The notes beneath the pieces are model-generated. The model made no database searches, was not told the DNA's origin, and saw only the letters and a list, made by a program, of their open reading frames with translations. Positions 12,234 to 40,344 of a DNA stretch of 64,000 bases are shown piece after piece (position 1 is the stretch's first letter; each line of letters starts with the position of its first letter). Origin of the DNA: an uncultured delta proteobacterium (lineage in GTDB: Bacteria > Desulfobacterota > Binatia > Binatales > Binataceae); the NCBI GenBank assembly GCA_963724765.1, contig CAVRVY010000002.1, positions 320,001-384,000 of the forward strand. Direction: 5' to 3'. The translations under genes were made by a program, and so were the position numbers.

Positions 12234-12591
12234 TGGTGGAGGCGGGGGGAATTGAACCCCCGTCCGAAAACCGCCGAGCGGTGGCCACTACACGCTTATT
12301 CCGCGATTTAATCTCACCGCCTCAACGCCCACGGACGGGCTGTGCTGCGGCCAGCCACTTTGCGTTTCGGGTGCGCGCCCAAGTGGCCGACGGCGTTTCC
12401 CTAGCCCACTAAATGACGCCCCGCCCCGCTGTCATGGGCGAACAGCGGCGGGACGCTAGCGGCCCTTAGGCCGCCAGAGCGTAACCGTTATTGTCTGCGG
12501 GTAAATTTCGCAGTCTGTTTGTTTAACGGGATAACAGCACCCCGGCGTGCGACCACGGCTTTCTTGTTTCCGTCGAACCCGGTTCGCCCCC
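12234..12591 (-). ncRNA. ssrA: tmRNA; tag peptide (A)ADNNGYALAA*
   Basis: 5' GGGGGCGAACCGGGTTCGACGG, 3' GGGGGTTCAATTCCCCCCGCCTCCACCA, 358 nt, internal ORF GCA GAC AAT AAC GGT TAC GCT CTG GCG GCC TAA. Confidence 0.97.
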
Positions 12592-23293: not shown

Positions 23294-25390
23294 CTAGGCC
23301 ACCTGCGGGCGGATTATCCCAGTCTCGCTGCGCGAGGCCGAAGCAGCCGGCAGTACGCGCACCGGCAGGATCACCAGGCTGAGCCCATGCACCTGTAGCC
23401 AGTTCTGCAATTCGAGCGCGGTGTGGTTGTGCAGGAAGCGGCTGATAAAGCCTTCCAGTTCGGCCTCGAAGATGAGCTTGCCGGCGAAGAACACGGCTTG
23501 CGGGAATTCGTGCGCGACGTCCAGGCACAGCTTGCGCAGCTCCACGACGACGTCGGGGCCGATGCTCACTCGCAGTTCGGAGTGCAGGCCCAGGTCGGTG
23601 CCGAAACGGCAGTATTCGCTGAGATCGTCGGCCACCTGCTGTTCGAGCTGCTTGACCTCTTCGGGCCCCTTCATCCGCGACGATTCGACTTCGCCCACGC
23701 CGACGAAGATCACGTTGCGGTACTGGTCGCGAAACAGCCGGCGCAGCGTCAGCAGCGTGGCCAGGCCCAGGCCGTTAAAACCGTTGACCAGCAGCACCGC
23801 GGTCGGTGCAGTCCGATCGTACTGTTCGGGCGGGCTTTCCTTGGCGGCGAAAAGCTCGGGCAGGATGTCGGCTTCGAGCTGTTCGATCGCATGACTGATG
23901 TACTTATAGTGATGGCGCACCAGGTAGCACAGTGCGACCATCGCGCCGGTTATCACGATCGTGACCCAGCCGCCCTCGTCGAACTTCAGCGTCACCGTGA
24001 GCATCAGGATGAGCGCCGTGAACGAGCATCCCACGCCGTTGATCGCAAGCTTGCGCCGCCAGTTTGGCTCCCTCGCGCGCTCCTGCCACCAGTGCACGCT
24101 CATCCCAAGCTGCGAGAGCGTGAAGGTGACGAACACGTTGATCGCGTAAAGCACAACCAGCAAATCGACCCGCGCATGCGTGAACACCAGGATTGCGATC
24201 GCCGCCAGGCCCATCGCGAATACCCCGTCCTGCGTCACCAGGCGCGAGCTGAGCTGCGCGAAGCGGCGCGGCAACCAGCGGTCCACCGCCATCGTAGCCA
24301 GCACCCGCGGCCCGTCGATGAAGCCGGTCTGCGCGGCTACGAACAACAGCGCGCCCTCGGTGATGAGGGTGAAGGTGATGATGGGCACTCCGACCCGCAG
24401 GCCGAACAGCTTCCAGTTGCTGGCCACGCGCTCAAACAGCACGGCGTTGAGGGTCTGGCCGTGGACCGGGCCGACGTTGAACAGCAAATAACAGACCAGG
24501 ATCCCGCCGGCCAGTCCCGCCAGCGACACGGCCATATAGAGCATCGTGCGCTTGCCTGTCGCCGTGCGCGGCTCGCGCAGGATCGGCAGTCCGTTACTGA
24601 CCGCCTCGATTCCGGTGTAAGTGCCGGCGCCCATGCTGTACGCACGGAAGAAGATGATCGCCAGCGCCAGCACGCCCACGGTGCTGACGCCGGTATGGAC
24701 CTGGCTGATGGCGTCGCGGGTGATCATGGGCAGTTCCGGGCTTCTGATGAGGAGCGCATAGCCGACCAGCCAGATGTGCATCACCACGAAGGCGAGAAAG
24801 ATCGGCAACAGCGAAAGCACCGATTCCTTGACCCCCCGCAGATTCATCCCGACCATCAGCACGACCACCACCAGGCAGACCCAGAATTTCAGCCACAGCC
24901 AGTTGGTCGGCAGGAAGCTGAAGATGGCGTCGGCGCCGCTCGCGATAGAGATCGCGATCGTCAGAACGTAATCGATCACCAGCGCGCATCCCGACGTCAG
25001 GCCCGGATAGGGCCCCAGCAACTTGGTCGCGACCAGGTAGCCGCCGCCGCCCGACGGAAACAGGTCGATGGTTTGCGAATACGAGGCTGAGATGATGAAG
25101 ACGGTCAGCGCCGTCATCACCGCCAGAAACACCGCCAGGTACTGGTTGTGGCCGAGCGCGAGGAAGGCTTCCTCGGGACCATAACACGACGAACTCAGTC
25201 CGTCGGAGCCGAGACCGACCCAGGCCAAAAACGCGATCAACGAAAGGCTATGGAAGATCCCTGGATCGCGGACGTCGCGCGGCGGTCCGATGATGACGTC
25301 GGTGAGAGTACGTTTGCCGCCCCCATTTGGCCCGTCACTGATAGTGCGCTTGGCGCTACCCGGTCCGTCGCTGCCGGATTTATTTCCCAT
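23294..25390 (-). CDS. APC-family permease (KimA/YdaO-like, possible K+ or amino acid transporter)
   Basis: DGLSSSCYGPEE, SGGGGY, TGIEAVSNG, many TM segments plus cytoplasmic C-domain. Confidence 0.9.
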   Translation of the reverse strand: MGNKSGSDGPGSAKRTISDGPNGGGKRTLTDVIIGPPRDVRDPGIFHSLSLIAFLAWVGLGSDGLSSSCYGPEEAFLALGHNQYLAVFLAVMTALTVFIISASYSQTIDLFPSGGGGYLVATKLLGPYPGLTSGCALVIDYVLTIAISIASGADAIFSFLPTNWLWLKFWVCLVVVVLMVGMNLRGVKESVLSLLPIFLAFVVMHIWLVGYALLIRSPELPMITRDAISQVHTGVSTVGVLALAIIFFRAYSMGAGTYTGIEAVSNGLPILREPRTATGKRTMLYMAVSLAGLAGGILVCYLLFNVGPVHGQTLNAVLFERVASNWKLFGLRVGVPIITFTLITEGALLFVAAQTGFIDGPRVLATMAVDRWLPRRFAQLSSRLVTQDGVFAMGLAAIAILVFTHARVDLLVVLYAINVFVTFTLSQLGMSVHWWQERAREPNWRRKLAINGVGCSFTALILMLTVTLKFDEGGWVTIVITGAMVALCYLVRHHYKYISHAIEQLEADILPELFAAKESPPEQYDRTAPTAVLLVNGFNGLGLATLLTLRRLFRDQYRNVIFVGVGEVESSRMKGPEEVKQLEQQVADDLSEYCRFGTDLGLHSELRVSIGPDVVVELRKLCLDVAHEFPQAVFFAGKLIFEAELEGFISRFLHNHTALELQNWLQVHGLSLVILPVRVLPAASASRSETGIIRPQVA

Positions 25391-25400
25391 CGTTTATATC

Positions 25401-25412
25401 TGAGAGCTGCTC
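25401..25412 (+). repeat. Putative att core, left copy TGAGAGCTGCTC
   Basis: Identical 12-mer at 39354-39365; both copies sit at the composition shifts. Confidence 0.7.
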
Positions 25413-25535
25413 ACGTAAAGTAGGGTTTTCAGGCACTTCCAGACACCTCGAGAAACCGCCACGAAGCGAAAAATCCTTTGACGTATGCTAAATCGCACTT
25501 TCGGTCATCTTCATTGAACTTTGAGCCGAGGCCTA

Positions 25536-25579
25536 CGGATACCCCAGCGGAGCACCGAGAGCACCCTAACGGAGCACCC
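25536..25579 (+). repeat. Putative integrase arm-type repeats (GGATACCCC, GAGCACC x3)
   Basis: CGGATACCCCAG also at 39287-39298; CGGATACCCC inverted at 38454-38463. Confidence 0.55.
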
Positions 25580-25854
25580 GCAGCTCGTCGTGATCGCCGA
25601 TCCGTCTCTTTGGCACCGACGCACGTAACAGCCACTATGCAGGCGAAGCAACCCCGCGACGAAGCGCCAACGATCAACGTCCGTCGCACTCGTTCGCTGA
25701 GTTACTCCGGGGCTATCAGGCCAAGGCAGACCGATCCGGATCCCGCATGGACAGAATCGAAAAGCGATTCTCCCAAAAATTTTCCATCGACAAGTCCGGT
25801 CACGACCAGTCACGGCGAGAGACGCAGAGCGCAAAAAGCGCCATAATCGCAATT

Positions 25855-26388
25855 ATGGTCGATGACGTGAAGCCTGCGGGACAGGGCAGGGGAGCACACA
25901 GAATGAGCCTCAAGGACAAGTTGTTAAAACGAAAAGAACAAACGGAAGCCGCGTCACAACAGATAGAAACCAGGCTCCAGGCATGGGATCGGGCACTCGT
26001 AGCCTTGATTCACTTTATCGAGAACACGCTCTCAGAGTCTGTCGAGGCTAAGGTTCTTACCCATGCCAAGACGATGAGCGGACATCAAGATGATTTCCTC
26101 AAGAGGGAAGTCGAATGGCCAATGCTTACCGTGTCAGCGGATGATTTAAAAGTGACCATCCAGCTGGTCGGACTAATCGCCGGAGGCGGCGGCGTAGATG
26201 TCACTGGCGGAGCAGTCCACGGTCGAGGATACGCGCTCCTTTGGGACGGCGCGGGGCAGGCTCCAGAAAACTGGAAAATCGCGCCTGCAGCCGGGGCGCA
26301 AGGGAAGGTGGATCGGGCCAAAGCAAAGCCTTTGACATCGGGCCTCTTAGAAAGAGTGTTATCTGAGCATCTAGGGCTCGGTAAGTGA
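25855..26388 (+). CDS. Hypothetical protein (island cargo)
   Basis: Open frame with protein-like composition; start 25855 or 25903. Confidence 0.6.
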   Translation: MVDDVKPAGQGRGAHRMSLKDKLLKRKEQTEAASQQIETRLQAWDRALVALIHFIENTLSESVEAKVLTHAKTMSGHQDDFLKREVEWPMLTVSADDLKVTIQLVGLIAGGGGVDVTGGAVHGRGYALLWDGAGQAPENWKIAPAAGAQGKVDRAKAKPLTSGLLERVLSEHLGLGK

Positions 26389-26692
26389 TGGTCCTTGCCG
26401 TGGCGGCGGAGCCGCCGGGCAGCCTCGCCGCTTGCTCGCATCCGACCCGCGGTCGACCTCACTTGTATCGCGGGAAAACTCCTATACGTGGGACCGAGAA
26501 GCGCCAACGTCGCCTCCCGGATAGGGCCTGGTAGCGCGTTGATAGTCTTCACGCCGTATCTGACGACCTTCGCGGAGAATTTGTCGAGTGTTGTGGACAA
26601 CTGGCTTCGCGAAGTGGATTTAAGCGGGGCTGCGCATTGATCGCTCCGCGAGGTCGGTTATCCTCCATCCTTCTACTTTGCGAAAGAATTAA

Positions 26693-27815
26693 ATGAATGC
26701 CGAGCGCTTACATGCAGTGGCCAAGGCGCTGCTTAAGGAATTGACCGACGGTCGTATCGTCGAGCATCTACAAGAGCTTATAGGCGGTGTACAAAACGCA
26801 GTGAACCAACTAGCGCAAGCGCAGTTCGCAGAACCTTGTTGCAAGTAAGCGCACGGAATTGGCCCGGCTACTACCTAACGCGCGAAGCAATGAGTTTAGC
26901 CCAGCGTGGCGTCAAATCGTCACGGAGATTGGGGGTACCGGTTTACTCGGCACCGAACTTCGAAATCGAATCGAGAACGTCTTCCAGCGTAACCAGATTA
27001 AGCCTGCTGCAGCTCTTCAAGAGCTGCAGCCGATCCTACAGGCCCTAACGACTTTCAAGAATGGGCTGACTGAGGTTACCAACGGCCTCACACATCTTAA
27101 AATCGGAGCTGAGGAACTTGCACCGGGTGAATGCGAAGTCGGCGTGGCCATCCCACGAGAAGCCATCGACGATGAGTTCAAGACGTTCACCGATGAACTA
27201 GAAGAGTTTGAGTTTATCTTCGCCACTTTTTTGGAACTGTCTACGGGTCACCGCGATCCACTCCCAATACGAACTCTGTCTTCGACAGCGTTGATGGTTT
27301 ACGTCGGTATGGCACAGGCGGCAGCCGCCGCATTCGCCTATGCGGCCGAGCGGATCACCCTAGCCTACAAAAACTTGCTGGAGGCCAGGGAAATAAAAGC
27401 GAGGCTTCAGGCATTGGAAATGCCGGCGAACCATATTGAGCAATTCGAACGGCTTCTGAATGAAAGGATGGCGCACACTGTCGAGCAAGTTTCAATAGAA
27501 GTTGAGCAGAAATTTTTCCGAGTCGACGATGACCTACGACGGCAAGAACTCAAAAATGCTGTCAGAGTATCACTCAGAGGTTTGGCGAATCGGATTGACA
27601 AGGGATACAACATCGACGTTCGCATTGGTCCGCCTACCGACGAACAGAAAGCGGACGCCGAAACAGCGGCAGCAATCCGCACCATAGAGGCTGCTTCGGT
27701 TTCTCTTCAATTCATGCGTTTGGGCGGAGAACCTATCCTGATGCTCGACGAAGGCGAACGAGCTAAAGGCGAGGAAGCGACGGAGGCCAAGCGTCCGAAA
27801 AAGAAGACGAAATAG
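26693..27815 (+). pseudogene. Helical hypothetical protein with a frameshift near 26830-26850
   Basis: MNAERLHAVAKALLKEL... from ATG 26693 stops at about 26848; another frame continues ...RTELARLLPNARSNEFSPAWRQ to 27815. Confidence 0.65.
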
Positions 27816-27823
27816 AAGGCTCA

Positions 27824-28678
27824 TTACAGCCGGGTGTCGCGCTTCCGAGACTTCGACATCGAGAGTATGAGACCGAGCCCCTTGAAAGAGTCGCGCGCGC
27901 CTTGATGTAAGTCTTCCCGCAGATCTGGTATGCCGTCCCGCTCCTGGGTGATTGCCGGCCGGGGCATCTCTATCGGGCTGAGTTGGCCGGGTGCCCCCTC
28001 TTTGAGGATCTCCATCGGATACAGGGACAGCGCCTCGCGGCGGGGCATCATGCGGATTTTGCGAATCCGAGCATTGAGGATCTCAGGCGGAACTAACCAT
28101 TCGCGGAAAGTTGTTTCCTTCACCCATTCATACTGCGCGAGAAACCCGTCCGCGCCGTCAATGATAACTTCGAGCAGCGCGCTCCCGTGCTCGCCGTCGG
28201 CCGTTCGCTCTTCGACCGGGACATGCTCAGTGATTTTGAACAGCGGAATATCGGAGAGCCAGACGCCATCATGACTGCTGTCAAGTCTGAATCCGCTGAG
28301 TAGCAGGATCATTTCCGCGTTTGCGAGGGTCGTTCGGTGAAACAAAATATTCGGCTGAGGCCGTCCTGGCGGGATCGGTGGCTGCGCACCGCGTAGGCCT
28401 TTAACTCGCGCAGCCAATAGCTTAAGGGTCTGGGCCGGGATTTCCCACTGGCGATATGGGTCGCCTTCCGCGGTCTTCTCAAACTCATCGAGCACGCCCG
28501 TGGGCGCATCTATCGTGACCCCGATCACATACTCGCGGTCCTCGTAAATGAGAGGCTCCGTGTACTTCGGATCCGGCGGCTCATCTGACAGCCGGATTGT
28601 GGCAGCACCCTCCCCGAATCCGTGGCGCACGATGATCTCAAAGGCCTGTTGTGGGCTCGTCCGATGCCAGAGTTGCAT
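27824..28678 (-). CDS. Protein with two tandem ADP-ribosyltransferase-like domains
   Basis: Internal duplication: LWHRTS..GF..IRLSD..RQW.IP and LFHRTT..GF..VWLSD..REWLVP; fold call is motif-based. Confidence 0.65.
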   Translation of the reverse strand: MQLWHRTSPQQAFEIIVRHGFGEGAATIRLSDEPPDPKYTEPLIYEDREYVIGVTIDAPTGVLDEFEKTAEGDPYRQWEIPAQTLKLLAARVKGLRGAQPPIPPGRPQPNILFHRTTLANAEMILLLSGFRLDSSHDGVWLSDIPLFKITEHVPVEERTADGEHGSALLEVIIDGADGFLAQYEWVKETTFREWLVPPEILNARIRKIRMMPRREALSLYPMEILKEGAPGQLSPIEMPRPAITQERDGIPDLREDLHQGARDSFKGLGLILSMSKSRKRDTRL

Positions 28679-28746
28679 AAGTCAAAAACTCCCAAAGGTA
28701 AAGTTGGACGGAGCCGACTATCTGGCCGGTCGGCTCCGTCGCGATA

Positions 28747-29238
28747 CTAAGCAGCGGCGCGCAAGGTGGCCGGGCGCGTCTGAAGGCCACGCGCCTGGGC
28801 GAAGGCGGCAACCTTGCTGAAAAACGACTCCGCCCGCGCAGCCAGTCGCCTGCGTGGGGCTCGGCGGTATTGAAGCATAACGAGGCCAATCGCCTGGGGA
28901 TCTCCCGCAACCAACCGGGCAACGAGACCGCGCGCCTCATCGGCCGTCATTCCGGCCCCGAGAGGCAACTGCTTGCGCCGGCCCTTCCAATCCGTCGCCC
29001 AACACTCCGGCCAGATGCCGATCGTGAGGCAGCGCCTGCGGCCGGCCCCATCGACAAAAGAAAAGCGCCACTCGGCCCGCTCGGGGTCCGCGTTCTTTCC
29101 TCGTCTTGGGCGCAGACTGAGACCGTCTCTGCACTCGGTCGCCATGGCCTTGGCTCGCTTATGAGCCCATCGCGCATCCGCTTTGTCCGCTTCTGCTTCC
29201 AGTTGTTGTTGCTCTTCATAACTAGTCTCTATCCCCAC
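28747..29238 (-). CDS. Stand-alone integrase arm-DNA-binding-like domain protein
   Basis: GLSLR...WRFSF..G.RR.LTIG.WP...MTADEAR mirrors the N-terminus of the island integrase; no catalytic domain. Confidence 0.55.
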   Translation of the reverse strand: MGIETSYEEQQQLEAEADKADARWAHKRAKAMATECRDGLSLRPRRGKNADPERAEWRFSFVDGAGRRRCLTIGIWPECWATDWKGRRKQLPLGAGMTADEARGLVARLVAGDPQAIGLVMLQYRRAPRRRLAARAESFFSKVAAFAQARGLQTRPATLRAAA

Positions 29239-29419
29239 TAGTTCGTGTTTGCGGCAGCTCTATTGCTGCTTAGCGCGAATCTACGCAACTCTGCGCAACG
29301 TGTCAAGCAGTGATGTAGCAACTGACCTAGCCACTGTACAATCACTTCTCAACAAATTGATAGTGCACTTGTACATTTGTTGAACCCGTACTGAGTAACT
29401 TAGTTGCTACCTGCCCTAC

Positions 29420-29662
29420 TTAGCTGTGAAACTTGAACCAGCTTGGCTGCAACAAAAACTTCTGCCACTCCTGCGGCTTCGGCGCTCGATGCGCAGCAAC
29501 AGCCTCTTCGAGAGCCTTGCGCCCAGGCTCGCCGTCCGCGATGCGAGCGATTCCCGCCGCGATAAGGCGCACAGCCTGATCGAGCGGCCACGCCGCCGTC
29601 TCGCCGACCTGATATGGGCTTGCGGTTTTTATGTACGTGACATTGAAGAGCTGAGCCGTCAT
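29420..29662 (-). CDS. Small hypothetical phage-type protein
   Basis: MTAQLFNVTYIK..YQVGETAAW...RLIAAGIA; ATGA overlap with upstream frame stop. Confidence 0.55.
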   Translation of the reverse strand: MTAQLFNVTYIKTASPYQVGETAAWPLDQAVRLIAAGIARIADGEPGRKALEEAVAAHRAPKPQEWQKFLLQPSWFKFHS

Positions 29663-30121
29663 TTGCCGGCCCTCCACGGCGTCATCGCTTCGGTTATTTC
29701 GTCGCCGACAAGAACGCGTCGATGCATCAACTGGAAGGCCAACAGTTCTATCTCGGACCAGTACGTCGTTAGCAACTTTTCGGTCTCCGCAAGGAGCGCC
29801 TGATAATCCAACCCGCTCCCCCGTAAAAGCTTCGTCACCTCGTTGAGGGTCGTGCTCGGATTGGTAGTTGATGTAGCTGCCCGTTCGCCTCTCACTGAGC
29901 GGCCAGCCCAACGTGCAGATTATCCTGACCTCCCGGGACAGCGATCGGAAATCCCTAAACGTGCAGATTCCATCGGGCGCAGTGCCGTCTTCCTGAATGC
30001 CGGGCCAAATTTCGACCCGCGAAACACCATTGCCGACCTTAACCCCCAACACCGCGTGCGATGCTTCGTGAGTGGCAACCCTCTCGCGCTGTCGCCTGAT
30101 GCTGTAACTATCGAAGTTCAT
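29659..30121 (-). pseudogene. Peptidase M41-like HExxH protein, frameshifted
   Basis: VATHEASHAV in N-part; C-part YWSEIELLAFQLMHRRVLVGDEI in a different frame. Confidence 0.6.
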
Positions 30122-30364
30122 CTGCGCGGCCGGCGGGCTTTGCCGCCCAGGATGCTGTCAAACGGCTGAAGGTCACATCGGGCTCGCGATGCTCGGCCTC
30201 GCCGATGTCGAGACTTCGCCATCCCTCCGGGCTGCGACGGATGATCTCGCGGCTCTGTGGCCGGGCTGCATGGGCTGCGCGTGTTCTGAGCCGCAAACGA
30301 GCCGCGCCATATCGCATCCGCCGCAACAACTACTAACACGGCGCAAAATAATTATCGCGATCAC
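30118..30364 (-). pseudogene. Small membrane-anchored protein, probable frameshift
   Basis: MIAIIIL joins LLVVVAADAIW in another frame; start and stop overlap the neighbouring genes. Confidence 0.35.
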
Positions 30365-31005
30365 AACTTATCTCCTTGAAATGAGGCTCCGCAGATTCGA
30401 CACGGATTGCCGCAGAAGTGATCCCCGGCAGCCTTGCGCAATTCCTCGCGCTCGCGCCGGGTGAGCGGCTCATGCGCAGCGACATGCTCGACGGACGCCG
30501 CCTCGATCTCCGCCTTGCGCTGGTGCATCCGCTTGGTCAAGGTCGATCGGTACGACGCGCCGTTGGAGCGGCGCGGCTTTCCCTTACTCGGCCCGCGGGT
30601 GCTTGGGCCGAAGGTGCGAAGCGCTGACTGCTCCAGCTGGGTGACAGTAAATTTCCGCTCAAGGCGCGGGAGCTGGGCCGGCACGGTGCGGCGGATCACG
30701 TCAAGCGCCTCCGTGCGCTGGAGTGTGTAAAGAACCGTCGTCAGTCTGAGCAGGACTTTCCGCCTCTTAGTAGGGCTCGCCCATTCCAAATCCAGGCAGC
30801 GCCGAAGCTCTGGAGCTGTGAGGCGGCCGATTACCTCCTCCAGCGTGCGGGCGTTGACGCAGGCATACGTTTCGACGTAGGTGTACCGGCCGCGCTTTGT
30901 CTTCACCACGCGCCGGCCGGAGTCATGGGCTAAGATCGGGGGACCGTCCTTGGCCCGTCGGCGGTTACGGCCTGATCGGCCGGCTGTTGTGGCTTGATCC
31001 GCCAT
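30361..31005 (-). CDS. Basic hypothetical protein with C-terminal Cys cluster
   Basis: 214 aa ORF tightly packed in operon; HFCGNPCRIC. Confidence 0.6.
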   Translation of the reverse strand: MADQATTAGRSGRNRRRAKDGPPILAHDSGRRVVKTKRGRYTYVETYACVNARTLEEVIGRLTAPELRRCLDLEWASPTKRRKVLLRLTTVLYTLQRTEALDVIRRTVPAQLPRLERKFTVTQLEQSALRTFGPSTRGPSKGKPRRSNGASYRSTLTKRMHQRKAEIEAASVEHVAAHEPLTRREREELRKAAGDHFCGNPCRICGASFQGDKL

Positions 31006-31482
31006 CTAGCTCTGTAAGTACCTGCGCTTGAGATTGTCGGGAACTTCGCCGATGCCCTTGTCGCGGTCATAGACCGTAAGCAGGTCGGCGGCGCGGCCTG
31101 AGCACGCATCACAAATCAGCCTTGTCGCGTTGGCCTCGACCCTGACGGGGCCGCGGCAGAAGGCGCAGAACGACTGCCGCCGCGTCCCCCAGCCGCGCTT
31201 ATAGGCTTCCCCTCGAATGATCGCGCGCACGGCTGAATGAGAAGCGCCGAACACCCTGCCAATACTTGAGTAGGACTCACCGGCGGCGCTGCGGCGCTTG
31301 ATCTCGGGGATATGCGCAGCCAATTTACCCTTAAAGGCCGGCGCGGGCGCGTGGGCTGCTGCTGATCCTGGAGTATCAGCTCTCACCCGCGCCGCGCGCC
31401 GGGGTGTCGCGCCGCCCGCGGGCTGATTCGCGTGCTTGCGCGATGCTTTATGCCGCGTCATTCGATGGCCATCCCACATCAA
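31006..31482 (-). CDS. HTH plus C4 zinc-finger protein
   Basis: GESYSSIGRVFGASHSAVRAIIRG (HTH-like); CAFC...ICDAC. Confidence 0.6.
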   Translation of the reverse strand: MMWDGHRMTRHKASRKHANQPAGGATPRRAARVRADTPGSAAAHAPAPAFKGKLAAHIPEIKRRSAAGESYSSIGRVFGASHSAVRAIIRGEAYKRGWGTRRQSFCAFCRGPVRVEANATRLICDACSGRAADLLTVYDRDKGIGEVPDNLKRRYLQS

Positions 31483-31536
31483 CCCTTGCGGATCCTTGCG
31501 TAGGATCCACGAGCGCCAGGCGTTTGCGTGCCGCGA

Positions 31537-32250
31537 CTACGAGCGCCTCACCCTCCGGCGTTGGCGTGCGCCAGACGGCGAAACCTGCGCGATCAACTCG
31601 GCGCACTTATCAGGATCCCAGCCGGCCGCGTCACCCTTGACGTAACCGCCGCCGCCGACGCTGCCGGCGCTATAGTCGCGGATAAACTCGACTATGGTGC
31701 ACGGATGCGGCTCCCGCCGCGCCGGCGGGTTGCACACTAGCTCCTTGCGATGCTGCCAGCTCTGAATCAGCTCCTCGGTTAAAAAAGGCAGCGTGAACTC
31801 GGACGCTACACGGACGCCCGCGGCGGCCGCCTTGGCGACCTCCTGATTGGCGGTATGCACTGCGTGCAGCGCCTTGTCCAGGCGCTCTAACGGTCCGTGC
31901 AGGAACTCCTCGAAATCAAACTCGGCCGCCGCCTTGTCCTTCGCGATCCGAAGCGCCTCTAACTCTGCCTCGGCCGCGCTCACCGACTGCTGATGCCTGG
32001 TGACGGCGCTCTGAAGCCGTGCAACTTCGATGCGCTCGGCGCTCGTATCTCGCACCTCGCCGGTCTCAGAATTGATCGGCTCGGCCTCGGCCGCGTAGAG
32101 CTTCGCCTGCGCAACCGCGAGGGAGGCTACAGCGTTGTTTAACCATACGCGCTTTCGCCCCGTTTGCTGGGCGCAAACATGCCACGTCTGGTGCCCGGCA
32201 TCTTTGGCTTCGCGCTTTATGTTGATCGCCGACTTGGTGAAAAATGCCAT
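31537..32250 (-). CDS. Coiled-coil hypothetical protein, probable 3' frameshift
   Basis: GGAGA RBS; C-terminal VEFIRDY..YVKGDAAGW...ELIAQ; a frameshift restores LIAQGFA. Confidence 0.6.
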   Translation of the reverse strand: MAFFTKSAINIKREAKDAGHQTWHVCAQQTGRKRVWLNNAVASLAVAQAKLYAAEAEPINSETGEVRDTSAERIEVARLQSAVTRHQQSVSAAEAELEALRIAKDKAAAEFDFEEFLHGPLERLDKALHAVHTANQEVAKAAAAGVRVASEFTLPFLTEELIQSWQHRKELVCNPPARREPHPCTIVEFIRDYSAGSVGGGGYVKGDAAGWDPDKCAELIAQVSPSGARQRRRVRRS

Positions 32251-32271
32251 GTCTCCGTCTTCTCCGTGTTC

Positions 32272-32526
32272 CTAAGCCACTGAGTGGCCGTGTTTTATGA
32301 AATGGTCCTGTTTGCTCCGGCGAGGCTTTGTCCGCCGCCGCGGGGTTGCTAACTCGCTACGTAACTGCTTTACGTGCTCTGCCACTTCCTTCCTCAGTGA
32401 CCCAGTGACCAAGGAAAGCAGACCCGAGTTGGTCTCCCTCTCGAGCTGCGTTCGGCACAGCGGCGCGGCTTCGAGGAGACGCGCTTTCATCTCCAGTAAC
32501 CGCTTTGCCTTGTCACTTAACATCAC
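32272..32526 (-). CDS. Small hypothetical protein
   Basis: 84 aa helical ORF, GTGA overlap with upstream ORF. Confidence 0.5.
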   Translation of the reverse strand: MMLSDKAKRLLEMKARLLEAAPLCRTQLERETNSGLLSLVTGSLRKEVAEHVKQLRSELATPRRRTKPRRSKQDHFIKHGHSVA

Positions 32527-32759
32527 TGCAAAACCTCGTCGTTCTCCAGCTCCGAGATCAAAACTCGCATCTCCTCAAGCTCGGCACCCAGCGCGGCGAT
32601 CGCGCCATGAATTTTTACCAGCCGCTCGAACTCGGCCTTGACCGCCGCTATGCGCCGCCTACGATCACAATTTCTGTCGCGCTCGATCCTCTTCCATACT
32701 TCTTCCAGGCTACCCATCGTTGGAAACGCTCTGATTGCTATTACAAATGAGACGGTCAA
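32523..32759 (-). CDS. Small coiled-coil hypothetical protein
   Basis: Helical ORF translationally coupled to the next gene; start uncertain. Confidence 0.5.
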   Translation of the reverse strand: MTVSFVIAIRAFPTMGSLEEVWKRIERDRNCDRRRRIAAVKAEFERLVKIHGAIAALGAELEEMRVLISELENDEVLQ

Positions 32760-32760
32760 T

Positions 32761-33720
32761 GATCAGCTTAATCTCAGTGGCAGAGTCTGTTTAAGCTGCA
32801 GTCAGCGGTCTAAGATAGGTAGCTGCGGCTCTGACTATGTTCTCAGCGTCACGCAGTAGGGTTAGGCGCGTCACTTTACAGAACAGCTTTGGGGTTCGTA
32901 GCTGCGCTCCGCCCCGGATAGGTTGGTACTGATCTGACGACTGCGGCTGATGATTAAGATGGTGAGAAGCATCAGAGGGCAAGCACAGTGCTTGACAGAT
33001 TGAGCACGGGGCAGCGCTAGGCTCGCTACAGTGATAGCAGGGCTGACTAGTCTGGTAAGAGAGAGACGGTAGCAAGCTATAGGGGCTGACTATATTGGCG
33101 GGCGCGGGGTTGATTTACGTAATAATATGGCAGTCAGAGCTTTGAGTGCTGCTATATGAGCATAGAAGAGAGTGCGCTTTTAGCGGAAGAGGTAGCAAAA
33201 TTGCTCAACGCATAGAGCTGGTATTGAGTAAGATCTATATATCGTACTTGCGTCTGAAACTCACGCAGGGCGGTATGCTCGTACTTAGACCAGTACTCAT
33301 GCTCGGCCTCGACAAAACTTGTCACGCTGTCGGCATCGCCGCTTACACGATCATCTGAGTGTGTGCTCTCAAATTGGTTCTCTTTCGGTTAGAAAACGTA
33401 TGAGCTTATTTTAACGCGGCGCGATAGGCACGCTAGAGTTTGTATAGCTCGTAGAGTGTGCTGCAGATACTCTACACTGAGACGCGGATGTTATAGCGCA
33501 CACTCTTTGTACAGTGATGGACGAGAGTAAACTGACTATACTCGCTCTTACATAGGATCCAGGCGGTCAGCACATAGTGCAAATTGCCGGACTGAGAATA
33601 GCTAGTGAGGCGTCGGTGTACTTAAGAAGCAGACAGACTGTCTCATTGACAGCATCGGTGAGAGGTTTTAGGGCTGGTTTTTTCATTGACTAGGTCACTC
33701 AGTTACCAGATTGCTCCGCA
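32761..33720. other. Compositionally aberrant tract with CTGACT repeats; candidate replication origin downstream of primase-helicase
   Basis: CTGACT at 32831, 33043, 33086, 33532; AGTCAG at 32800, 33132; hand count about 11 CC versus about 61 GG on + strand. Confidence 0.5.
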
Positions 33721-33778
33721 TCGACTAATACTTAACAGGCTCAATGTCTCCAAAGAATGCGATTCGCTGTTCGCGACA

Positions 33779-35807
33779 CTAGACCAACGCCACGCGAAGC
33801 GCGTCATCACTAAGATCGTAGTTGCTGCCTTTGAGCTGCCAGATTTTATCCTTCATTTCGCGCTTGGCGGGATTGATTAGGAATCGCTGGCGGATGTTTA
33901 CGGCCCCAGCTTCTTCAAGGGCATTAGTCAGTTGAACGTACTTGCTCTCACTAATAGAGATCTCTCGTTCGGCCGCGGCATATATCTCACGATAGGTAGA
34001 GAAAGTGGGACGCTCATCGTCGCTCATCAACTCTCTTGCGAACAGTTCAAGGCCGCTGCCGCTCGCTTACTGCACGGCTCGCTTCGCGGCTGAGAGTGGC
34101 GCGTTCGAGGTGGCAGACCAGCTGGCAAAGTACACTTAGTGTTCAAGGTAATGCCGGACGTGACTAATGCCGCCACACATCGCTCAGTTATGAATCAGAA
34201 CCCCCAGCTCCCCAGCTATCGGGTTCAGAACGTCGATAACTAGGTACAGGCGGTGATTCAGGGCTATGAACAGAGGCAGACGATCGTTAGAAACGAGAAG
34301 GAAGTTTGCGACGTTGCGCACGGAATGCGCCGGGATAAACTTTTCATTTACGAGAACCTCATCGCCGGTTATACACTCTTTCATCTCTTCTGAGTAGTGC
34401 CAGATGTTACTATTGCCCTTAACCTCTTCGCCAACAATAAACTGCTTATAGGCCATCCAACAGTTGAACGTTGAGCCTAACTCCCGATTACCAATCTTGG
34501 ACACATTAGGCTTGCCGTAAATCGCTCTCATAATCTTGCCAAGCAGGGACTTGCTCGCGCAGGGTGCGCTCTTGATTAAGAGACCACGGTGGATATTGGT
34601 CTCGGGCATCGCTATTGGCGCGGCGAGATACTGCAAGACTGCGCGCCGCAACTCTTCATCATCTGGCACAAGTTGCTTGAGCAGACAGTGGAACGGCGTC
34701 ACATCACCGGGAATGGATGCACAACCGCAGTACTGCCACGCATTGTATTTGCCATCAGGCAGCAACTTAGGTTGACCGGGCAGGTAGTCAATTACGGTGA
34801 AGGTTCTCAGGCCGCCCCACTCGGCACACTCGTCAATGAGATAACAGTACTTGAACTTCTCGGAGCGTTGGCGCACCGGAGCTTTGTTAGGTTTCTCCCA
34901 AACGTCTTTGAGGTCTGAAATTTTGTAAAGTGTGAAGGTGCTATCCGCCTCTTTCATAATGCATGGTGGCGTCTCGATCACGGCGTGACGTTCGTTGTAC
35001 GGCTTGAGCTGTTCCGCTAGGCCATAAGGAATGCGCAACAGAGCCTGATAGGCTTGAAGTCAGAACGCGGTAACGAAGTCGCTCGGTCCCTTAGCTTTGC
35101 CTGGAGGAGGCTTACAGAAGTAGACATTAGCGCCTCGATTGCTGAGCGCCTTAGCGAAGGACTCAAGTGCGGCGAGGGAGGAAGGGTTACCGAAGATGTC
35201 GTTATCGAGGTTGACCTCGATGTCGCGGCCCCGGACCTCAAACTGATTAAACTCCTTGATGAGATACTGCGCGTGCTTCCGATCTCAGTGGTTCCATACG
35301 CGCGCGATCGCGAACGCGAACACACCTCGATCATAAGCCTGACGCACTCGACCTCGCTCTCGACGCCTGTCAGCAGCTTCTTTTTGTCGGCCTGCCACTC
35401 AACACAGCTGTGATCACCGCCCAGCGATGCAAGCACCGGAACGGGCTGGTAGAGCAGCGAACAGGAATACGCAGGTTGCCAGTAGCGGAAGTACGGACGG
35501 CAGTCCGCGGGCTCATCCTTCTTGCGGACCTGGAGAAACCTGACACGAGCGAAGTCGGCAACCTTAGACTAGTCGGGGTTTCAATAGTGGATCAGGAAGG
35601 ACCACACCTTGTAGCTGGTAAGCGCTGCGGTCTGCGAGGGTGTCAGCAGATCGCTGATGATGTCGGCGACAGCGAGCGGGATGCCATGCTCCTCAAAATA
35701 GGACTTGTACAGCTCTCGGCTCTCGTCCATGTCGATGCGGAAGCCGCTGCCTTCGGCCGCGCCAGGCTCTTGCGCAGCGCTGCGTTTAGATTCTCTGAAT
35801 TGAGCAC
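33779..35807 (-). pseudogene. Primase-helicase (DUF3854/Toprim-like plus DUF5906/SF3-like), disrupted
   Basis: YWQP, VESE, VWN, LDND, KGPSDF in the N-part with TGA/TAG stops and frameshifts; degenerate Walker A SAPCASKS, FNCW..KQFIVGEE, VNEKF, NFLLVSN. Confidence 0.8.
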
Positions 35808-35811
35808 GGCG

Positions 35812-36057
35812 TCACTTTCCGGCAGAGGCCAACTGGGCCGCGAGCCAGTCCTCGATCTCAGAGCGGATCCAAAAATTGTTTCGCTCGATCACCGCTTTGG
35901 CTGGCTTCGGGAAAGGAAGTTCCGGCGAGATCTCGCCGCGGACCAGTCTCCTAAGCGTGGATTTGCTGATGTCGAGCGCTGCTTGGACGGCCTCGGAGCT
36001 CATCACCATACGGCCTGCTAAATCTTTGTCCGCCTCGGCCTTCACTCTGATACCCAT
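35812..36057 (-). CDS. AlpA-family regulator/excisionase
   Basis: ISKSTLRRLV..FPKP...WIRSEIEDWL; GGAGG RBS. Confidence 0.82.
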   Translation of the reverse strand: MGIRVKAEADKDLAGRMVMSSEAVQAALDISKSTLRRLVRGEISPELPFPKPAKAVIERNNFWIRSEIEDWLAAQLASAGK

Positions 36058-36289
36058 TTCTTCCCTCCAAATTTTTCTGAGGTGTCATCAACTATTGATA
36101 CCCAGTTTACTACACCTTCAAAAATCTCTAAGGCGGTTTTCGGAAGCGCAATTTCGCCTACGCGCAGAGGGGATTTGCAGCATGGCCGAAGGATTTCGCT
36201 ACTTTTTGTAGCGTTAAGCACGGGTGACTAAGCTCGCTAAGCACGAGCAGAACCGGATGCCGGATGGCGTCGAGCTGGGGTGCTACGCG

Positions 36290-36327
36290 GCTGGGTCTCT
36301 TAGAGCTGGGTCTCTTCGAGCTGGGTC
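36290..36327. repeat. 15-bp-period tandem repeat (core GCTGGGTCTCTT)
   Basis: Two full cores plus a partial third copy. Confidence 0.75.
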
Positions 36328-36360
36328 GGGCCACCTCTTCGGCCGGTTTGGGCCACCGCT

Positions 36361-36651
36361 TGGGACGGGGTGGTGTCCCACGAATTCTTATTTAGATTCA
36401 AGAGGTTAAGCGCTTTGGGACACGGGACACTCAAACAGCGTCAAATACTGCTCGGCTGCGGCGGTGGTGGCTGCGGGCATAAGACATACATACATCTCTC
36501 TCTCTCTCTAAATATTAAGTATTACCCTGTCCCGGCTGTCCCAAACCCTAAAACCTTAACGACTTAAAGGTAAATTCGTGGGACACCACCGCTGTCCCAT
36601 GGCTGTCCCAAGGGTGTCCCACGGCTGTCCCATGGCTGGCGTTGGTGGGAC
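36361..36651. repeat. Iteron-like array: 12 GTCCC/GGGAC copies around an AT-rich core, with an 18-bp perfect inverted repeat
   Basis: IR 36369-36386/36573-36590; four TGTCCCA copies at 11-bp period (36593, 36604, 36615, 36626); (CT)n and TAAATATTAAGTATTA in the centre. Confidence 0.85.
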
Positions 36652-37030
36652 GCACCCAATAAGAGGTGGGCGGCTTCGAGCTGGAAGTGCATCAGCTTAG
36701 GCCTGCACCACCGCCCGCTGCCGCGTCCTGGGCCCGCTCGGGAGATGGTCTCCCGGTAGTGTTTCACAACGACGCCCGTTAGAAGGGCTCGCAGGGCATC
36801 TTTCTAGTGCGATGTGTTTAAACAGAGTATGCGTTTAAACAGACTGGTTCGCAAAATGCGAAAGCTGACGACTGAGTATTGTCTCGGCGGGCTGAGTCGC
36901 TGCGGTGCGAGTGGGTGCTCGGAGAGCGAATGAACTGAGATGCGAAGCGAGTGAGCGACCTCGCACTCGATGCCCGCCGCGCCGCGCACTATGGGTATTC
37001 AGGAGCCCGCTCGGCCGCCTCGCTCGATCC

Positions 37031-38318
37031 TTAGGCCACCTTCGCCTGCCGCCGCGCCGCCAGCTCGTCGCGCTCCGCCGCACGCTCGCACGCCCGCGGC
37101 TCGCCCGCGATCCAGGCCGCCCAGTCGTCTAGCGCTGCACGGCGCTCGTTTATGAAGTCGTAGCTGTTATAATGCTTGCCCCCGATGCTCTGATCGACAT
37201 GATTGAGGATATCTCGCGCACCGCGGCCGGGACGGACCACGAAGCGAGGTAACTGGTGGATACTGAGCGCAGGTCGTGCATCCTGAAATTGACCCGCACT
37301 TGTCGGCTACGAGCTTGCGATGCCAGTACACGGGGTTGTTTATCGGCTTCGCTCGCTCATCGCTGAATACTAACTCCCGCCCATCAGCTACAGCCTTACG
37401 AGCCGAAGCATCTCGACCGCACGTTCGGGCAATGGCACAACCCAGCTGACGCCGTTCTTGGTTCGCTCGCCGGTATGGCCCACAACCTCTCATCGAGGTC
37501 TATCTCAGACGAGCGCGCCTCGGAGACCTCGCTACGACGTGCGCAGCTCCACCACAATAGCTTCTGAAAATCCCGGAACCTCTCATCCTCAATCTCGCAG
37601 ACACTCCGCCACGCAGCGCGAACCTGCTCGGGCAGTAGCTGAAGCTTACGCGGCTTCTCATCAACAAGATTCTTCACGCGCTGCGCGGGGCTCACCGCGA
37701 TAATCTCGTTATCCAGGGCGTAGTTGAAGATCGTTTTGATAACGAAGCCACACGGTTTGAGGTCACGCCGTTCGCGGCCGCAGGAGGATCGCTACCTTCG
37801 GCCTTGCGCGCCGCGCCAGTTCCTCGGCTTCCTCGATGACGGAAACGCGCACGCTCTGGAGCAGTTCGCGGACCTCGGCGCGGGTGATCGAGCCTATCGC
37901 GCGATCCTCCACCTCGGCAATACAAAGTTTTTCAGACGGCGGTGTCATCTTTAAGCGACGCTTACGCCATCCTTCGATCTTCCAATGCGCTATTCTCGAA
38001 GGTCTTTGTCTCGCGACGCAAACGCTCCGCTTCTTCGCGTTCGGCCTTAGCGGCCTCGATAGGTAGACACCTCCGCGACCTTAGCCTTGTGTTCATTTGC
38101 TAATTCACGCGCCGAGCCAGCGTGATCGACGGATACGAGCCGAGCGTCAGGCGGCTCTTCTTGCCGTTCAATGAGTAAAGCAGCACCCAGGACTTCGCGC
38201 CTGAGCTTGTCACGCGCAGCGCGAGCCCCCGCACTTTTGCATCGCGATGCTCGTCGCGCTTACCCTCGGCAGCAGCAGGCGCGGCTTTGACGAATTGGTT
38301 AGTCAGTGTTTGTTTCAT
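37031..38318 (-). pseudogene. Tyrosine integrase (P4-like, N-terminal arm-binding domain), multiply frameshifted
   Basis: GLALRVTSSGAKSW...LTLGSYPSITL; ARRSEV; HDLR; ILNH...HYNSYDF..ERRAALDDW spread over several frames. Confidence 0.85.
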
Positions 38319-38787
38319 TGCCTCGTCTCCGGGTGGGATTGCTCGTTAGTGAGTATTGTGAACCGATGCCAACACCCGTCAACAAGAGGGGGCATCTTAA
38401 ATAATCAGCCAAAAAGCCACGTAGTCGCGGAGCTAATTCGTTCGCAGTCCGCCGGGGTATCCGTCGGGGTGTACTCGTTTGCGGGGTGCTTTGCAACAGG
38501 TATTGACTAAATAACTGAGTATTTACAAGCACTATTCGACGCCACGTTCTGACGCAAATGGGATGCTTCAACATCAACGGAGAGAAGCGAATTTGAGCTG
38601 TAACCCATTTGGTAATGTGCTTTGTAACTGAGCTGCTTTGAGGCGAGAATCATCTGCGGACGGACCATCGGAGAGGGTGACCCTGGGGGTAGGGGGGTGT
38701 CCGGTCCCCTAGCGATCGGTTCGGAAACGGCGGCAGACGTCGCGCTGGTACAAGCTCAATTTATCCGGTCGAGATATGTGAGTTAGA

Positions 38788-39003
38788 GTGAAAGGCATGC
38801 CCTATCGATACACAGAGCCGATCATCCGCATCTGCTCGGAATGCGGTGAGAGCTTCTCGACCGCGACGCCAGCTGCCTCAACCTGCTCGGCCGTCTGCGC
38901 TAGGGCTAGGAAGCTAGGCCTTCAGCGAGCGCGTCGGCGATCGCGCAGCGCGGACAGCTTCGTCGCAGTCCGGCCGCCCAGCGGTTCTATCCGGGGCGAC
39001 TGA
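38788..39003 (+). CDS. Small zinc-finger protein
   Basis: CSECGESF...TCSAVC; start may be ATG 38797. Confidence 0.5.
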   Translation: MKGMPYRYTEPIIRICSECGESFSTATPAASTCSAVCARARKLGLQRARRRSRSADSFVAVRPPSGSIRGD

Positions 39004-39048
39004 GCCAAGGGGCGACTGAGCCAAGGGGCGACTGAGCCAAGGGGTGAC
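38993..39048. repeat. 16-bp tandem repeat GGGGCGACTGAGCCAA x3 plus partial
   Basis: Three perfect contiguous copies without spacers. Confidence 0.95.
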
Positions 39049-39353
39049 CGGGCGGCCCGGGCGCATCGCGGCCGTGTCAGCTTCGCCCGCCTCGTCGCTT
39101 CGTCCCACCTGGGCTAGGAGATCCGGATCCTGAAATCGAGCAGTCCATTTTGGCTGCCCAAAAAAAAATTTTCTCTCAGGAGTCCGGTCGCGAGAGGTTG
39201 TACATCCTGGCTTCGTCCCTTCGTCGCCCCGTTTCTTCGTCGCCCAGTGGCTTCACGCTCCGCGCCGGCCTAGTCACCCGGATGCCCGGATACCCCAGAA
39301 GGGCACCCATCTACCAAAATCGCCTAAAAGACCGCGGAAAGCGATCTTGAAAG

Positions 39354-39365
39354 TGAGAGCTGCTC
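39354..39365 (+). repeat. Putative att core, right copy TGAGAGCTGCTC
   Basis: Identical to 25401-25412; arm-like CGGATACCCCAG 55 bp inside. Confidence 0.7.
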
Positions 39366-39417
39366 CTATTAGGTGGGGCAGTGTAGACGCAAACCCACGG
39401 GCGGGCCAGATGCGCCT

Positions 39418-40344
39418 TCAAGGCTTTGAAATCATTGCAAAATCAAAAGAGTAAGTAGCTCGCTCCAGGCTCAGACTGTAGCGCGCGGCATCGATCAGGT
39501 TCTGCATCAGCGCGAGCACCGTCATTGGGCCGGTGCCCCCGGGATTGAGCGTTACCCATCCTGCGACTTCCTTGACCCGCTCGAAATCGACGTCGCCGAC
39601 GAATTTTCCCTGTCCCACGCGACGAAATCCGACGTCGATCACGCACGCGCCCGGCTTGACCATATCCGCGGTTATCAGGAACGGCCGGCCGATGGCGGCG
39701 CCCGCGCAGGAGACCACGATATCGGACTCGCGGCAGATCGCCGCGAGGTCGCGGGTGTGGCGATGGCACCAGGTGACGGTCGTGTTGTACCTCCGGCCGC
39801 CAAGGATGAGCGCCATCGGCTTGCCCGCGATATCGCTGCGCCCGATCACCGCCACGCGCGCGCCTTCCATCGGCACGCGGTAGTAGTCGAGTAGTATCAG
39901 CACGCCGCGCGGCGTACACGGGATGAAGTGGCCCAACTGCGCGCGATAGAAGTCGCTCACGTTGATCGCGCCCACCGCGTCGACGTCCTTGGCTGGATCG
40001 ATCGCGTCGAACAGCCTGAAACGGTCGACCTTCTCCGGTATCGGCAGTTGCAGCAGGATACCGGCCACCGACGGATCGGCGTTGAGCCGCGCAATTTCTT
40101 CCAGCAGACGCTCCGTGGTCACCTCCTGAGCGGTCATCGTGACCATCCGGTTTTCGAAGCCGAGTTCCTCGGCGAAGCGGCGCTTGTTGCGGACATACTG
40201 GCGTGAGGCCGGATCGTCGCCGATCAGCACGGCGGCCAGCGCGGGGGCGCAGCGGTAGCGCTCCTTAAGCTCACGCGCGTAGTGCTCGAGTTCGGGGCGC
40301 AAGCGGCGGCTGACTTCGCGCCCGTCCATGATTATTGCCGACAT
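39418..40344 (-). CDS. folD: Methylene-THF dehydrogenase/cyclohydrolase
   Basis: DDPASRQYV, GILLQLP, KDVD, PCTPRG, GRSDIAGKP, PGGTGPMT. Confidence 0.95.
   Translation of the reverse strand: MSAIIMDGREVSRRLRPELEHYARELKERYRCAPALAAVLIGDDPASRQYVRNKRRFAEELGFENRMVTMTAQEVTTERLLEEIARLNADPSVAGILLQLPIPEKVDRFRLFDAIDPAKDVDAVGAINVSDFYRAQLGHFIPCTPRGVLILLDYYRVPMEGARVAVIGRSDIAGKPMALILGGRRYNTTVTWCHRHTRDLAAICRESDIVVSCAGAAIGRPFLITADMVKPGACVIDVGFRRVGQGKFVGDVDFERVKEVAGWVTLNPGGTGPMTVLALMQNLIDAARYSLSLERATYSFDFAMISKP

Follow-up and report, generated by a model that had tools for sequence, protein, structure and literature searches.

Strand-specific loss of CC beside a broken primase-helicase gene suggests a burst of mutation in an integrated bacterial island

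Why should about 1 kb of a bacterial genome, next to a primase gene, be nearly devoid of CC on one strand? We address this question in a stretch of 64,000 nucleotides (the window), in which the plus strand of positions 32761–33720 (960 nt) holds 199 C and 277 G, with 11 CC dinucleotides (observed/expected ratio 0.27) versus 61 GG (0.76), and in which 32941–33280 contains no CC and 28 GG. The same 960 nt contain the words CTAG 5 times, TAG 28 times, CTGACT 4 times, and AGTCAG twice. These values confirm the counts of a preliminary description made from the letters alone (about 11 CC and about 61 GG, no CC across 32941–33280, abundant CTAG and TAG, six copies of CTGACT/AGTCAG). Its title announced a GG depletion; the depletion stands, but the strand wording does not, given that the depleted dinucleotide is CC on the plus strand, equivalent to GG on the minus strand, which is the coding strand of the island genes described below.

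The locus is extreme on every scale at which we ranked it. The interval starting at 32761 has the lowest observed/expected CC ratio among all 960-nt intervals of the window (mean 0.747, sd 0.137), and in a ranking of 22,549 intervals of the 5.4-Mb genome, with CC and GG both scored, the interval at 32801 ranks first for a low ratio (0.285; mean 0.776, sd 0.103). At 376 nt, the gap 32914–33290 exceeds every other CC- or GG-free gap of the genome, the next one elsewhere being 240 nt, and the two gaps that adjoin it (220 and 195 nt) rank 4th and 11th. Weaker CC depletion continues to about 34200 and is patchy farther on, and the CC steps of 32688–32714, just left of the edge, are intact. Using the reverse complement of each trinucleotide as a proxy for the starting state, we estimate that C survival is 0.17 next to another C versus 1.00 after G, 0.86 after A, and 0.74 after T; the loss of CC is therefore not due to mononucleotide skew, an explanation that the preliminary description had allowed for. 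A genome scan for asymmetry between RCCS and SGGY words did not separate the locus from a dominant background of ordinary coding bias, and another locus with long CC-free gaps (C4, 726–729 kb) is ordinary on inspection.

The core of the tract (32715–33733) is about 1 kb long, lacks long ORFs, has a G+C content of 49%, and lies within an integrated island of lower G+C content and about 14 kb (25400–39400), located between an amino-acid permease gene and folD. The island is present in a single copy, with a blastn search of 25001–40000 against the genome returning the region itself and two short matches of 60–81 nt. The left edge of the mutated zone is sharp (32715–32743) and lies immediately upstream of an intact minus-strand ORF (32523–32717, with its ATG at 32717), the next one after the tract. 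This ORF, for which no family was found, heads a run of minus-strand ORFs extending down to 27824; this run has no family match in Pfam, PHROGs, PADLOC, or NCBIfam. The tract occupies exactly the space between the old end of the primase gene (about 33734) and this ATG. To its right are the broken primase-helicase gene (33734–35778, minus strand), an excisionase ORF of the Xis/AlpA-like type (35812–36084, minus strand; NCBIfam Xis_Gifsy_1, E = 1.9e-7, below the curated cut-off), and integrase remnants in several frames (37031–38345, minus strand), with a match to PHROG 1 integrase at 37396–37695. By eye, an N-terminal integrase-like stretch can also be read at 38100–38345, and iteron-like repeats with periods of 11 and 15 nt occur at 36.26–36.69 kb, outside the tract. 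Based on this gene content (integrase, excisionase, and primase-helicase), the island is best explained as a P4-like element. Among four related islands, whose primases are 32–39% identical, none has a CC- or GG-poor tract, and in one of the four the gene that follows the primase is a homolog of 30361–31005.

The primase-helicase gene encodes DUF3854 Toprim-like and DUF5906/VapE-like domains and contains eight in-frame stops and one frameshift near 35324–35326. An intact relative, P0003 (726 aa), is 57% identical to the longest primase ORF and can be aligned in collinear order with positions 35775 to 33734 of the minus strand (677 residues, 54% identity); because of this collinear alignment, we assign the 83-aa ORF that adjoins the tract to the primase C-terminus. 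Relative to P0003, glycine is kept at 24 of 57 positions and proline at 26 of 31 (Fisher p = 2e-4), and tryptophan is kept at 6 of 14. The lost glycines are now serine encoded by AGC or AGT (12), cysteine (4), glutamate (3), or stops (2), and the lost tryptophans are now cysteine (5) or TGA stops (2). The Walker A motif G-x-x-G-x-G-K reads S(AGC)-A-P-C(TGC)-A-S(AGC)-K, and the Toprim-like E-G-E reads E-S(AGC)-E. The comparison with an intact protein thus upholds the earlier reading of lesions at GG codons in these two motifs and of a TGA at a plausible tryptophan.

The ancestral state of the tract can be approached through near-identical relatives, which are short contigs of depth 2–5 from four soil or sediment metagenome runs, compared over 27000–39500; the figures that follow are drawn from 30 of the 74 contig pieces and 40 of the 93 difference rows, and these pieces do not cover the densest core. 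Apart from a loose end, they lie outside 32997–33169 and 33319–33678, perhaps because likeness falls below the 80% limit there, and we attach no weight to this gap. Most flanking pieces have 0–2 differences each from the window, as compared with 2–23% of positions in the tract and to its right. Six flanking pieces have no difference, three of them at 32186–32529 (271, 151, and 151 nt) and three others of 187, 262, and 190 nt, and the general divergence is therefore almost nil. Among the 40 of 93 rows listed, the first difference next to these pieces is at 32743. The difference density is 7% at 32667–32996, 7 of 30 positions in a loose end at 33052–33081, 8% at 33170–33318, 4–5% at 33.7–34.1 kb, 2–4.5% at 34.8–35.7 kb, 0–0.5% at 36.0–36.2 kb, 2.6–2.9% at 36.2–36.5 kb, and 0% at 37.2–37.8 kb, with 0–1.7% in the left arm (28.8–32.1 kb). 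Thus, near 32.72 kb the density rises abruptly from 0 to 7–23%, and to the right it falls off over some 4 kb, as far as approximately 36.5 kb. In the far tail of the mutated zone (36173–36498), 8 of 303 nt and 7 of 240 nt differ, and at all six positions listed there the relatives have C. Similar hits are scattered sparsely left of the edge, at 28276, 30659, and 30817, and the relatives have an additional C after 37292, in the zone of the integrase remnants.

Nearly all of these differences are of one type. A C in the relative corresponds to T, A, or rarely G in the window in 35 of 38 differences for run X1 (window>relative: A>C 15, T>C 18, G>C 2, others 3), 29 of 29 for X2 (A>C 13, T>C 15, G>C 1, others 0), and 35 of 36 for X3 (A>C 20, T>C 13, G>C 2, others 1); this excess is highly significant for each run (binomial p < 1e-14 versus an expectation of 31% C), the three sets of counts being overlapping and not independent. 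The extra C's of the relatives also have one orientation, with five of five beside plus-strand C-runs and none beside G-runs. The direction of change is given by the primase: the 15 listed differences that fall in it affect 14 codons. In the relatives, nine of these codons specify the P0003 residue, two differ synonymously, and three specify some other residue; no codon loses agreement with P0003. The restored residues include glycine (TGA to GGA) and tryptophan (TGT to TGG), and one of the extra C's falls at the frame change. Because the codons of the relatives move towards this intact outgroup, the window represents the derived state and the relatives the ancestral form. The change, as judged from these alignments, is a loss of C from the plus strand, or equivalently of G from the coding strand, and the primase carries damage of the same kind as the tract, with the same process placing stops in it.

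The mutated allele is seen in this one assembly only. No DNA relative of the island was found in 60 related genomes or among phage records; viral contigs yielded one weak and irrelevant locus (L002) with normal CC and GG. Searches with the primase ORF and P0003 as queries returned nothing from viral, metagenome, or genome contigs, a degenerate pattern covering the mutated and intact forms of 33052–33109 had no match in metagenome contigs, and no sequencing run contained half of the sampled words of the stretch (shares of 0.06–0.09).

The signature was characterized at 46 changed sites (39 of them in listed rows and 7 in the loose end, out of 93 rows). The base in the window is A at 24 of these, T at 19, and G at 3, a mixture with which the totals per run agree and which on the minus strand corresponds to 24 G-to-T and 19 G-to-A changes. 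Because G-to-T is as common as G-to-A on that strand, plain cytosine deamination does not fit. In four low-density pieces with trimmed ends, the hit rates, which are lower bounds, depend on the preceding base: C was hit in 18 of 55 cases after C, 3 of 45 after T, 1 of 66 after G, and 0 of 38 after A. The first C of a CC was hit in 1 of 50 cases, G in 0 of 272, and the third C of a run in 1 of 13, and GCC followed by C was hit in 6 of 7. The product also depends on the neighbors, with 19 A versus 4 T before G, as compared with 12 T, 5 A, and 1 G before C (p = 0.001), and with A in 10 of 10 cases after a T of the window; where the relatives have five C's in a row, the window has CTATA. The same 4-mer may be hit at one site and spared at another (for example, GCCG was hit 3 times and unhit 5 times), and the process is therefore stochastic. 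These rules also account for the words that are abundant in the tract: TAG derives from TCG at three listed sites, which explains the TAG excess, and at least one copy of CTGACT (32831–32836) is CTGACC in the relatives. The six copies of CTGACT/AGTCAG compare with 0.9 expected for that word; they are not beyond chance because all 6-mers must be considered, and 36% of 300 first-order simulations contain some 6-mer at least six times.

Several simple mechanisms were considered for this signature and set aside. Dislocation mutagenesis, which copies the neighbor, does not fit, as outcomes (judged by eye) equal neither neighboring base. Cisplatin prefers GpG and ApG, and crosslinks of this type do not fit either, given that G before A, rather than A before G, ranks second among the contexts. 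Starvation for dCTP would not be CC-specific, and resection of a two-ended break would leave, to the left of the edge, a mirror-image cluster on the opposite strand, and the listed differences contain none.

What was the tract before it was mutated? A small-gene remnant at 33194–33343 (minus strand) is 51% identical over 49 residues to P0012, a protein of 86 aa that belongs to no Pfam family; the E-value is 5e-4 in a search of 1.84 billion representatives, 2e-13 in the pairwise comparison, and 8e-9 when the genome is searched. Codon usage scores weakly positive in the frame of the remnant. On this homology, a dead gene makes up at least a part of the tract. The preliminary description had noted a weak resemblance of the minus-strand ORF 32791–33075 to an eroded endonuclease VII, taken as favoring mutation of former coding DNA; the endonuclease VII assignment finds no support in Pfam or PHROGs, but the broader proposal, that former coding DNA was mutated here, is supported by the remnant. 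Read-through of the three minus-strand frames of the tract gave a best Pfam E-value of 0.23 and no PHROG match, and a library match of the tract to P0011, a low-complexity repeat protein, is spurious. At Rfam gathering thresholds, the only match in the 64 kb is a tmRNA at 12234–12591, with none in the tract, and a scan for promoters and terminators gave no more matches than in shuffled sequences.

Candidate enzymes were sought in the island and the genome. No ADP-ribosyltransferase (ART), DarT, deaminase, or defense family was detected in the island ORFs (15 scanned with PADLOC and NCBIfam, and 29–32 with Pfam and PHROGs), and the scanned ORFs contain no reverse transcriptase or PrimPol domain. 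A genome search for DarT and DddA-like families gave no match, as did the controls for both families. The genome does have MafB19-deam matches, and this family is also present in 12 of 14 control genomes; these matches are probably housekeeping deaminases.

Taking this evidence together, we lean, with moderate confidence, towards a recent and real event: a kataegis-like burst confined to one strand of exposed ssDNA, in which damage to bases was followed by error-prone bypass. The best explanation is that this burst hit the integrated island and destroyed its replication module. We envision that one strand of the island was single-stranded for a time, and for longest beside a fixed end at 32.72 kb, which may have been a priming site, a nick, or a transcription start; the exposed DNA could have been an origin. 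A base-directed enzyme or agent would then have marked the exposed strand, either at C in YC on the plus strand or at G in GR on the minus strand, and error-prone synthesis over the marked bases would have inserted A or T. Candidates for the agent include an ssDNA cytosine deaminase combined with uracil excision and an ADP-ribosyltransferase acting on guanine or cytosine. The absence of ORFs from the tract, its TAG and CTAG excess, and its low G+C content would be by-products of the burst.

Several observations bear on this explanation. The tract is unique in 5.4 Mb and absent from the four related islands, and the preference for YC over RC (or GR over GY) together with the sawtooth density is what would be expected of a base-directed agent on transient ssDNA. 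Against it, no simple enzyme that is known produces such a mixture of A, T, and G: deamination by itself should yield T, and oxidation of guanine should not yield G-to-A. Nor did the scanned island ORFs offer a deaminase or ART candidate. The strong dependence of the product on neighboring bases is a further difficulty, as confusion by a basecaller could look alike, and the allele comes from one assembly that is compared with contigs of depth 2–5. The preliminary description had included the footprint of a CC-specific ssDNA deaminase or a G-modifying enzyme among its options; this option is supported in outline by the derived state of the depletion, its single strand, its CC context, and its extension into the primase, but the excess of GG-to-AG that it predicted is absent, with 24 G-to-T and 19 G-to-A changes among the 46.

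The strongest competitor is an artefact of assembly or basecalling, in which the true DNA is intact and C on one strand has been miscalled, for example as a result of bulky or otherwise unusual modified bases in this region combined with a small number of long reads in one orientation. We consider this rather unlikely, although it accords with several observations: this assembly is the sole source of the mutated allele, the outcome at a site depends strongly on its neighbors, the loss of C's from C-runs is an error typical of long reads, and a genome in four contigs with 5% contamination is probably a metagenome bin. However, outside the C-type changes, the assembly is nearly perfect with respect to the short-read contigs (other differences 3 of 38, 0 of 29, and 1 of 36), which argues for a well-supported consensus. 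The errors would also have to be local, graded, restricted to one strand over at least approximately 4 kb, and stochastic within identical 4-mers. Modification disturbs its own strand only, so a consensus drawn from two strands should survive, and methylation-linked nanopore errors, in the available portion of one preprint, consist of a small number of motif-bound A-to-G and G-to-A changes and do not include C-to-A (bioRxiv 10.64898/2026.01.14.699587). If the artefact reading is correct, the locus illustrates a local, strand-restricted, C-specific failure of long-read assembly that creates false pseudogenes and possibly points to unusual DNA chemistry.

A second alternative, which we regard as improbable, accepts the changes as real and attributes them to a low-fidelity polymerase or reverse transcriptase that synthesized the plus strand from 32.72 kb rightwards, mis-inserting A or T for the second C, in repeated rounds that shared a priming site and differed in their stops. 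Such synthesis would account for the sharp start, for a tail that decays 5' to 3' along the plus strand, for changes on one strand only, and for a product that tracks the preceding plus-strand base, which would be the primer end (A after T in all 10 cases; CCCCC to CTATA). It gives no clear reason for an undamaged template G to be miscopied mainly after C, and it does not place the sparse hits that lie left of the edge. Moreover, the scanned island ORFs have no domain of a reverse transcriptase or PrimPol, and the domains of the island primase are limited to the Toprim-like and DUF5906 types.

The weakest alternative, functional design of an origin, a regulatory region, or a long non-coding RNA selected against CC/GG (as an escape from a nuclease, from a primase start motif, or from the island's own enzyme), draws on the position of the tract beside the primase gene, its lack of a long ORF, and its six-copy word, and is already close to refuted and in our estimate very improbable, given that near-identical relatives have C at the changed sites and do not avoid CC, the same process put stops into the neighboring primase, none of the four related islands has such a tract, the repeated word is within chance, the tract has a gene remnant and no Rfam family, better iteron candidates lie at 36.26–36.69 kb, and the scanned ORFs contain no enzyme of the ART, DarT, deaminase, or defense families, so that neither avoidance of an ART-like protein of the island nor an origin architecture, both proposed in the preliminary description, is sustained.

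Returning to the burst on exposed ssDNA, we consider what it would mean if the scar is real. A mobile element of a soil bacterium would have been inactivated in a single burst with base and context specificity and an unfamiliar product spectrum, which would point to an undescribed mutator or defense activity, and the loss of CC from one strand of mobile DNA would provide a signature that can be searched for in other genomes. We tentatively hypothesize, at a probability clearly below that of the burst itself, that bacteria or their competitors possess an APOBEC-like restriction of mobile DNA, in which an enzyme marks C in YC (or G in GR) on whichever strand of a replicating or incoming element is left as ssDNA, error-prone bypass writes A or T, and a heritable one-strand sawtooth scar extending from a priming site kills the replication genes. 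If this hypothesis is correct, the island would be the first case of its kind from nature, and the origin of the element and its direction of synthesis could be read from the scar.

How does the signature compare with known systems? Strand-coordinated clusters on exposed ssDNA are well known in retroviruses, yeast, and tumors; we found no natural cluster of this type in a bacterial genome in open-access papers and preprints. A diversity-generating retroelement can be rejected, as the changes are at C/G rather than adenine, there is no repeat copy, and the scanned ORFs have no reverse transcriptase domain. Repeat-induced point mutation of fungi similarly erases a dinucleotide and kills mobile DNA, but it needs duplicated DNA, acts on both strands, and yields only C-to-T changes, unlike the single copy, the single strand, and the T and A products seen here.

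Among bacterial enzymes, DddA and SsdA are toxins that deaminate cytosine and thereby introduce mutations into the DNA of cells that survive. Of the two, SsdA acts on ssDNA without strong context dependence, and DddA on double-stranded DNA at TC (PMC7901873, PMC12494967). In contrast to the local one-strand cluster of the island, neither is described in the accessible parts of these papers as leaving such a cluster, and the C-to-A half of the spectrum is expected from neither. Base-ADP-ribosylating enzymes offer a different set of parallels. DarT1 modifies guanine in ssDNA, with no consensus motif found in the portion of the study available to us (PMC11543638), and pierisin, ScARP, and Scabin mark guanine, with ScARP and Scabin also acting on cytidine (PMC11359729, PMC12945103). 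In mammalian cells, pierisin adducts convert G:C to T:A, C:G, and A:T, with 5'-RGG and TGG as hot spots (PMC11359729, from the sections available). The GG focus and the mixed G-to-T and G-to-A products of our tract resemble this pattern; unlike the many G-to-C changes of pierisin in mammalian cells, G-to-C accounts for 3 of our 46 sites, and no ART gene was found among the island ORFs. A local heritable scar is not among the effects described for these enzymes in the accessible parts of the same sources (PMC11543638, PMC11359729, PMC12945103).

A further resemblance is to APOBEC3G hypermutation of retroviral cDNA and to APOBEC kataegis in yeast and tumors, where changes at C of one strand cluster in exposed ssDNA. 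In the island, nearly all changes are likewise at C of one strand, in the proportions given above for the three runs, and there is a fixed preference for the 5' neighbor (CC or TC). Kataegis is expected to yield essentially C-to-T products; about half of the products here are A. Additional differences are the bacterial host, the integrated state of the island, and the lack of an APOBEC-like gene among those found. APOBEC3G prefers the third C of CCC, a position that is rarely hit in the tract. On HIV, the density of hypermutation drops at plus-strand priming sites, and the island resembles this pattern in its sawtooth density with a sharp edge. As with APOBEC3G, 5'-CC is the preferred context, followed by TC, with almost nothing after a purine, and tryptophan and glycine codons are converted to stops, serine, and glutamate.

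Three neighboring open reading frames on the minus strand, at 29420-30157, 30108-30329 and 30361-31005 to the left of the tract, appear open in the window. One of the relative contigs, the near-identical metagenomic sequences carrying the intact form of the island, has two additional cytosines relative to the window, at 30301 and 30306. Because of these extra cytosines, we consider that the three reading frames, despite their open appearance, may be fragments of genes that were disrupted by the same process of cytosine loss as the tract. Within the integrase remnants, the contig from one metagenome run lacks six bases of the window in four small gaps at 37785-37793, and a contig from another run agrees with the window here; the gapped contig possibly stems from another organism or represents another allele.

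Iteron-like arrays lie between the excisionase reading frame and the integrase remnants, at 36259-36363 and 36586-36685. An 11-nt unit is present in four to five copies at 36586-36638, and 15-nt repeats occur at 36287-36325, with one more copy at 36662-36684. These arrays are candidates for the real origin of the island or, alternatively, for recombinase arm sites. Dinucleotide frequencies are locally unusual at further places in the island: the segment at 36301-36600, which overlaps the arrays, has a GG observed/expected ratio of 1.62, and the ratio is 0.43 at 29101-29400.

At the left end of the island, a blastn search against the genome gave short matches on contig 4, another contig of the same genome, for 26589-26669 (90% over 81 nt) and for 25651-25709 (88% over 60 nt). 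These short stretches may represent relics of attachment sites or a small repeat element. The tmRNA gene (12234-12591, minus strand, tag peptide ADNNGYALAA) is located 13 kb from the island and, as far as can be seen, is not its integration site.

Two primase homologues, L006 (G016:C13) and L015 (G016:C14), each contain one in-frame TGA, which could reflect either a break in the gene or recoding; both are encoded in a single genome belonging to the same genus as the organism of the window.
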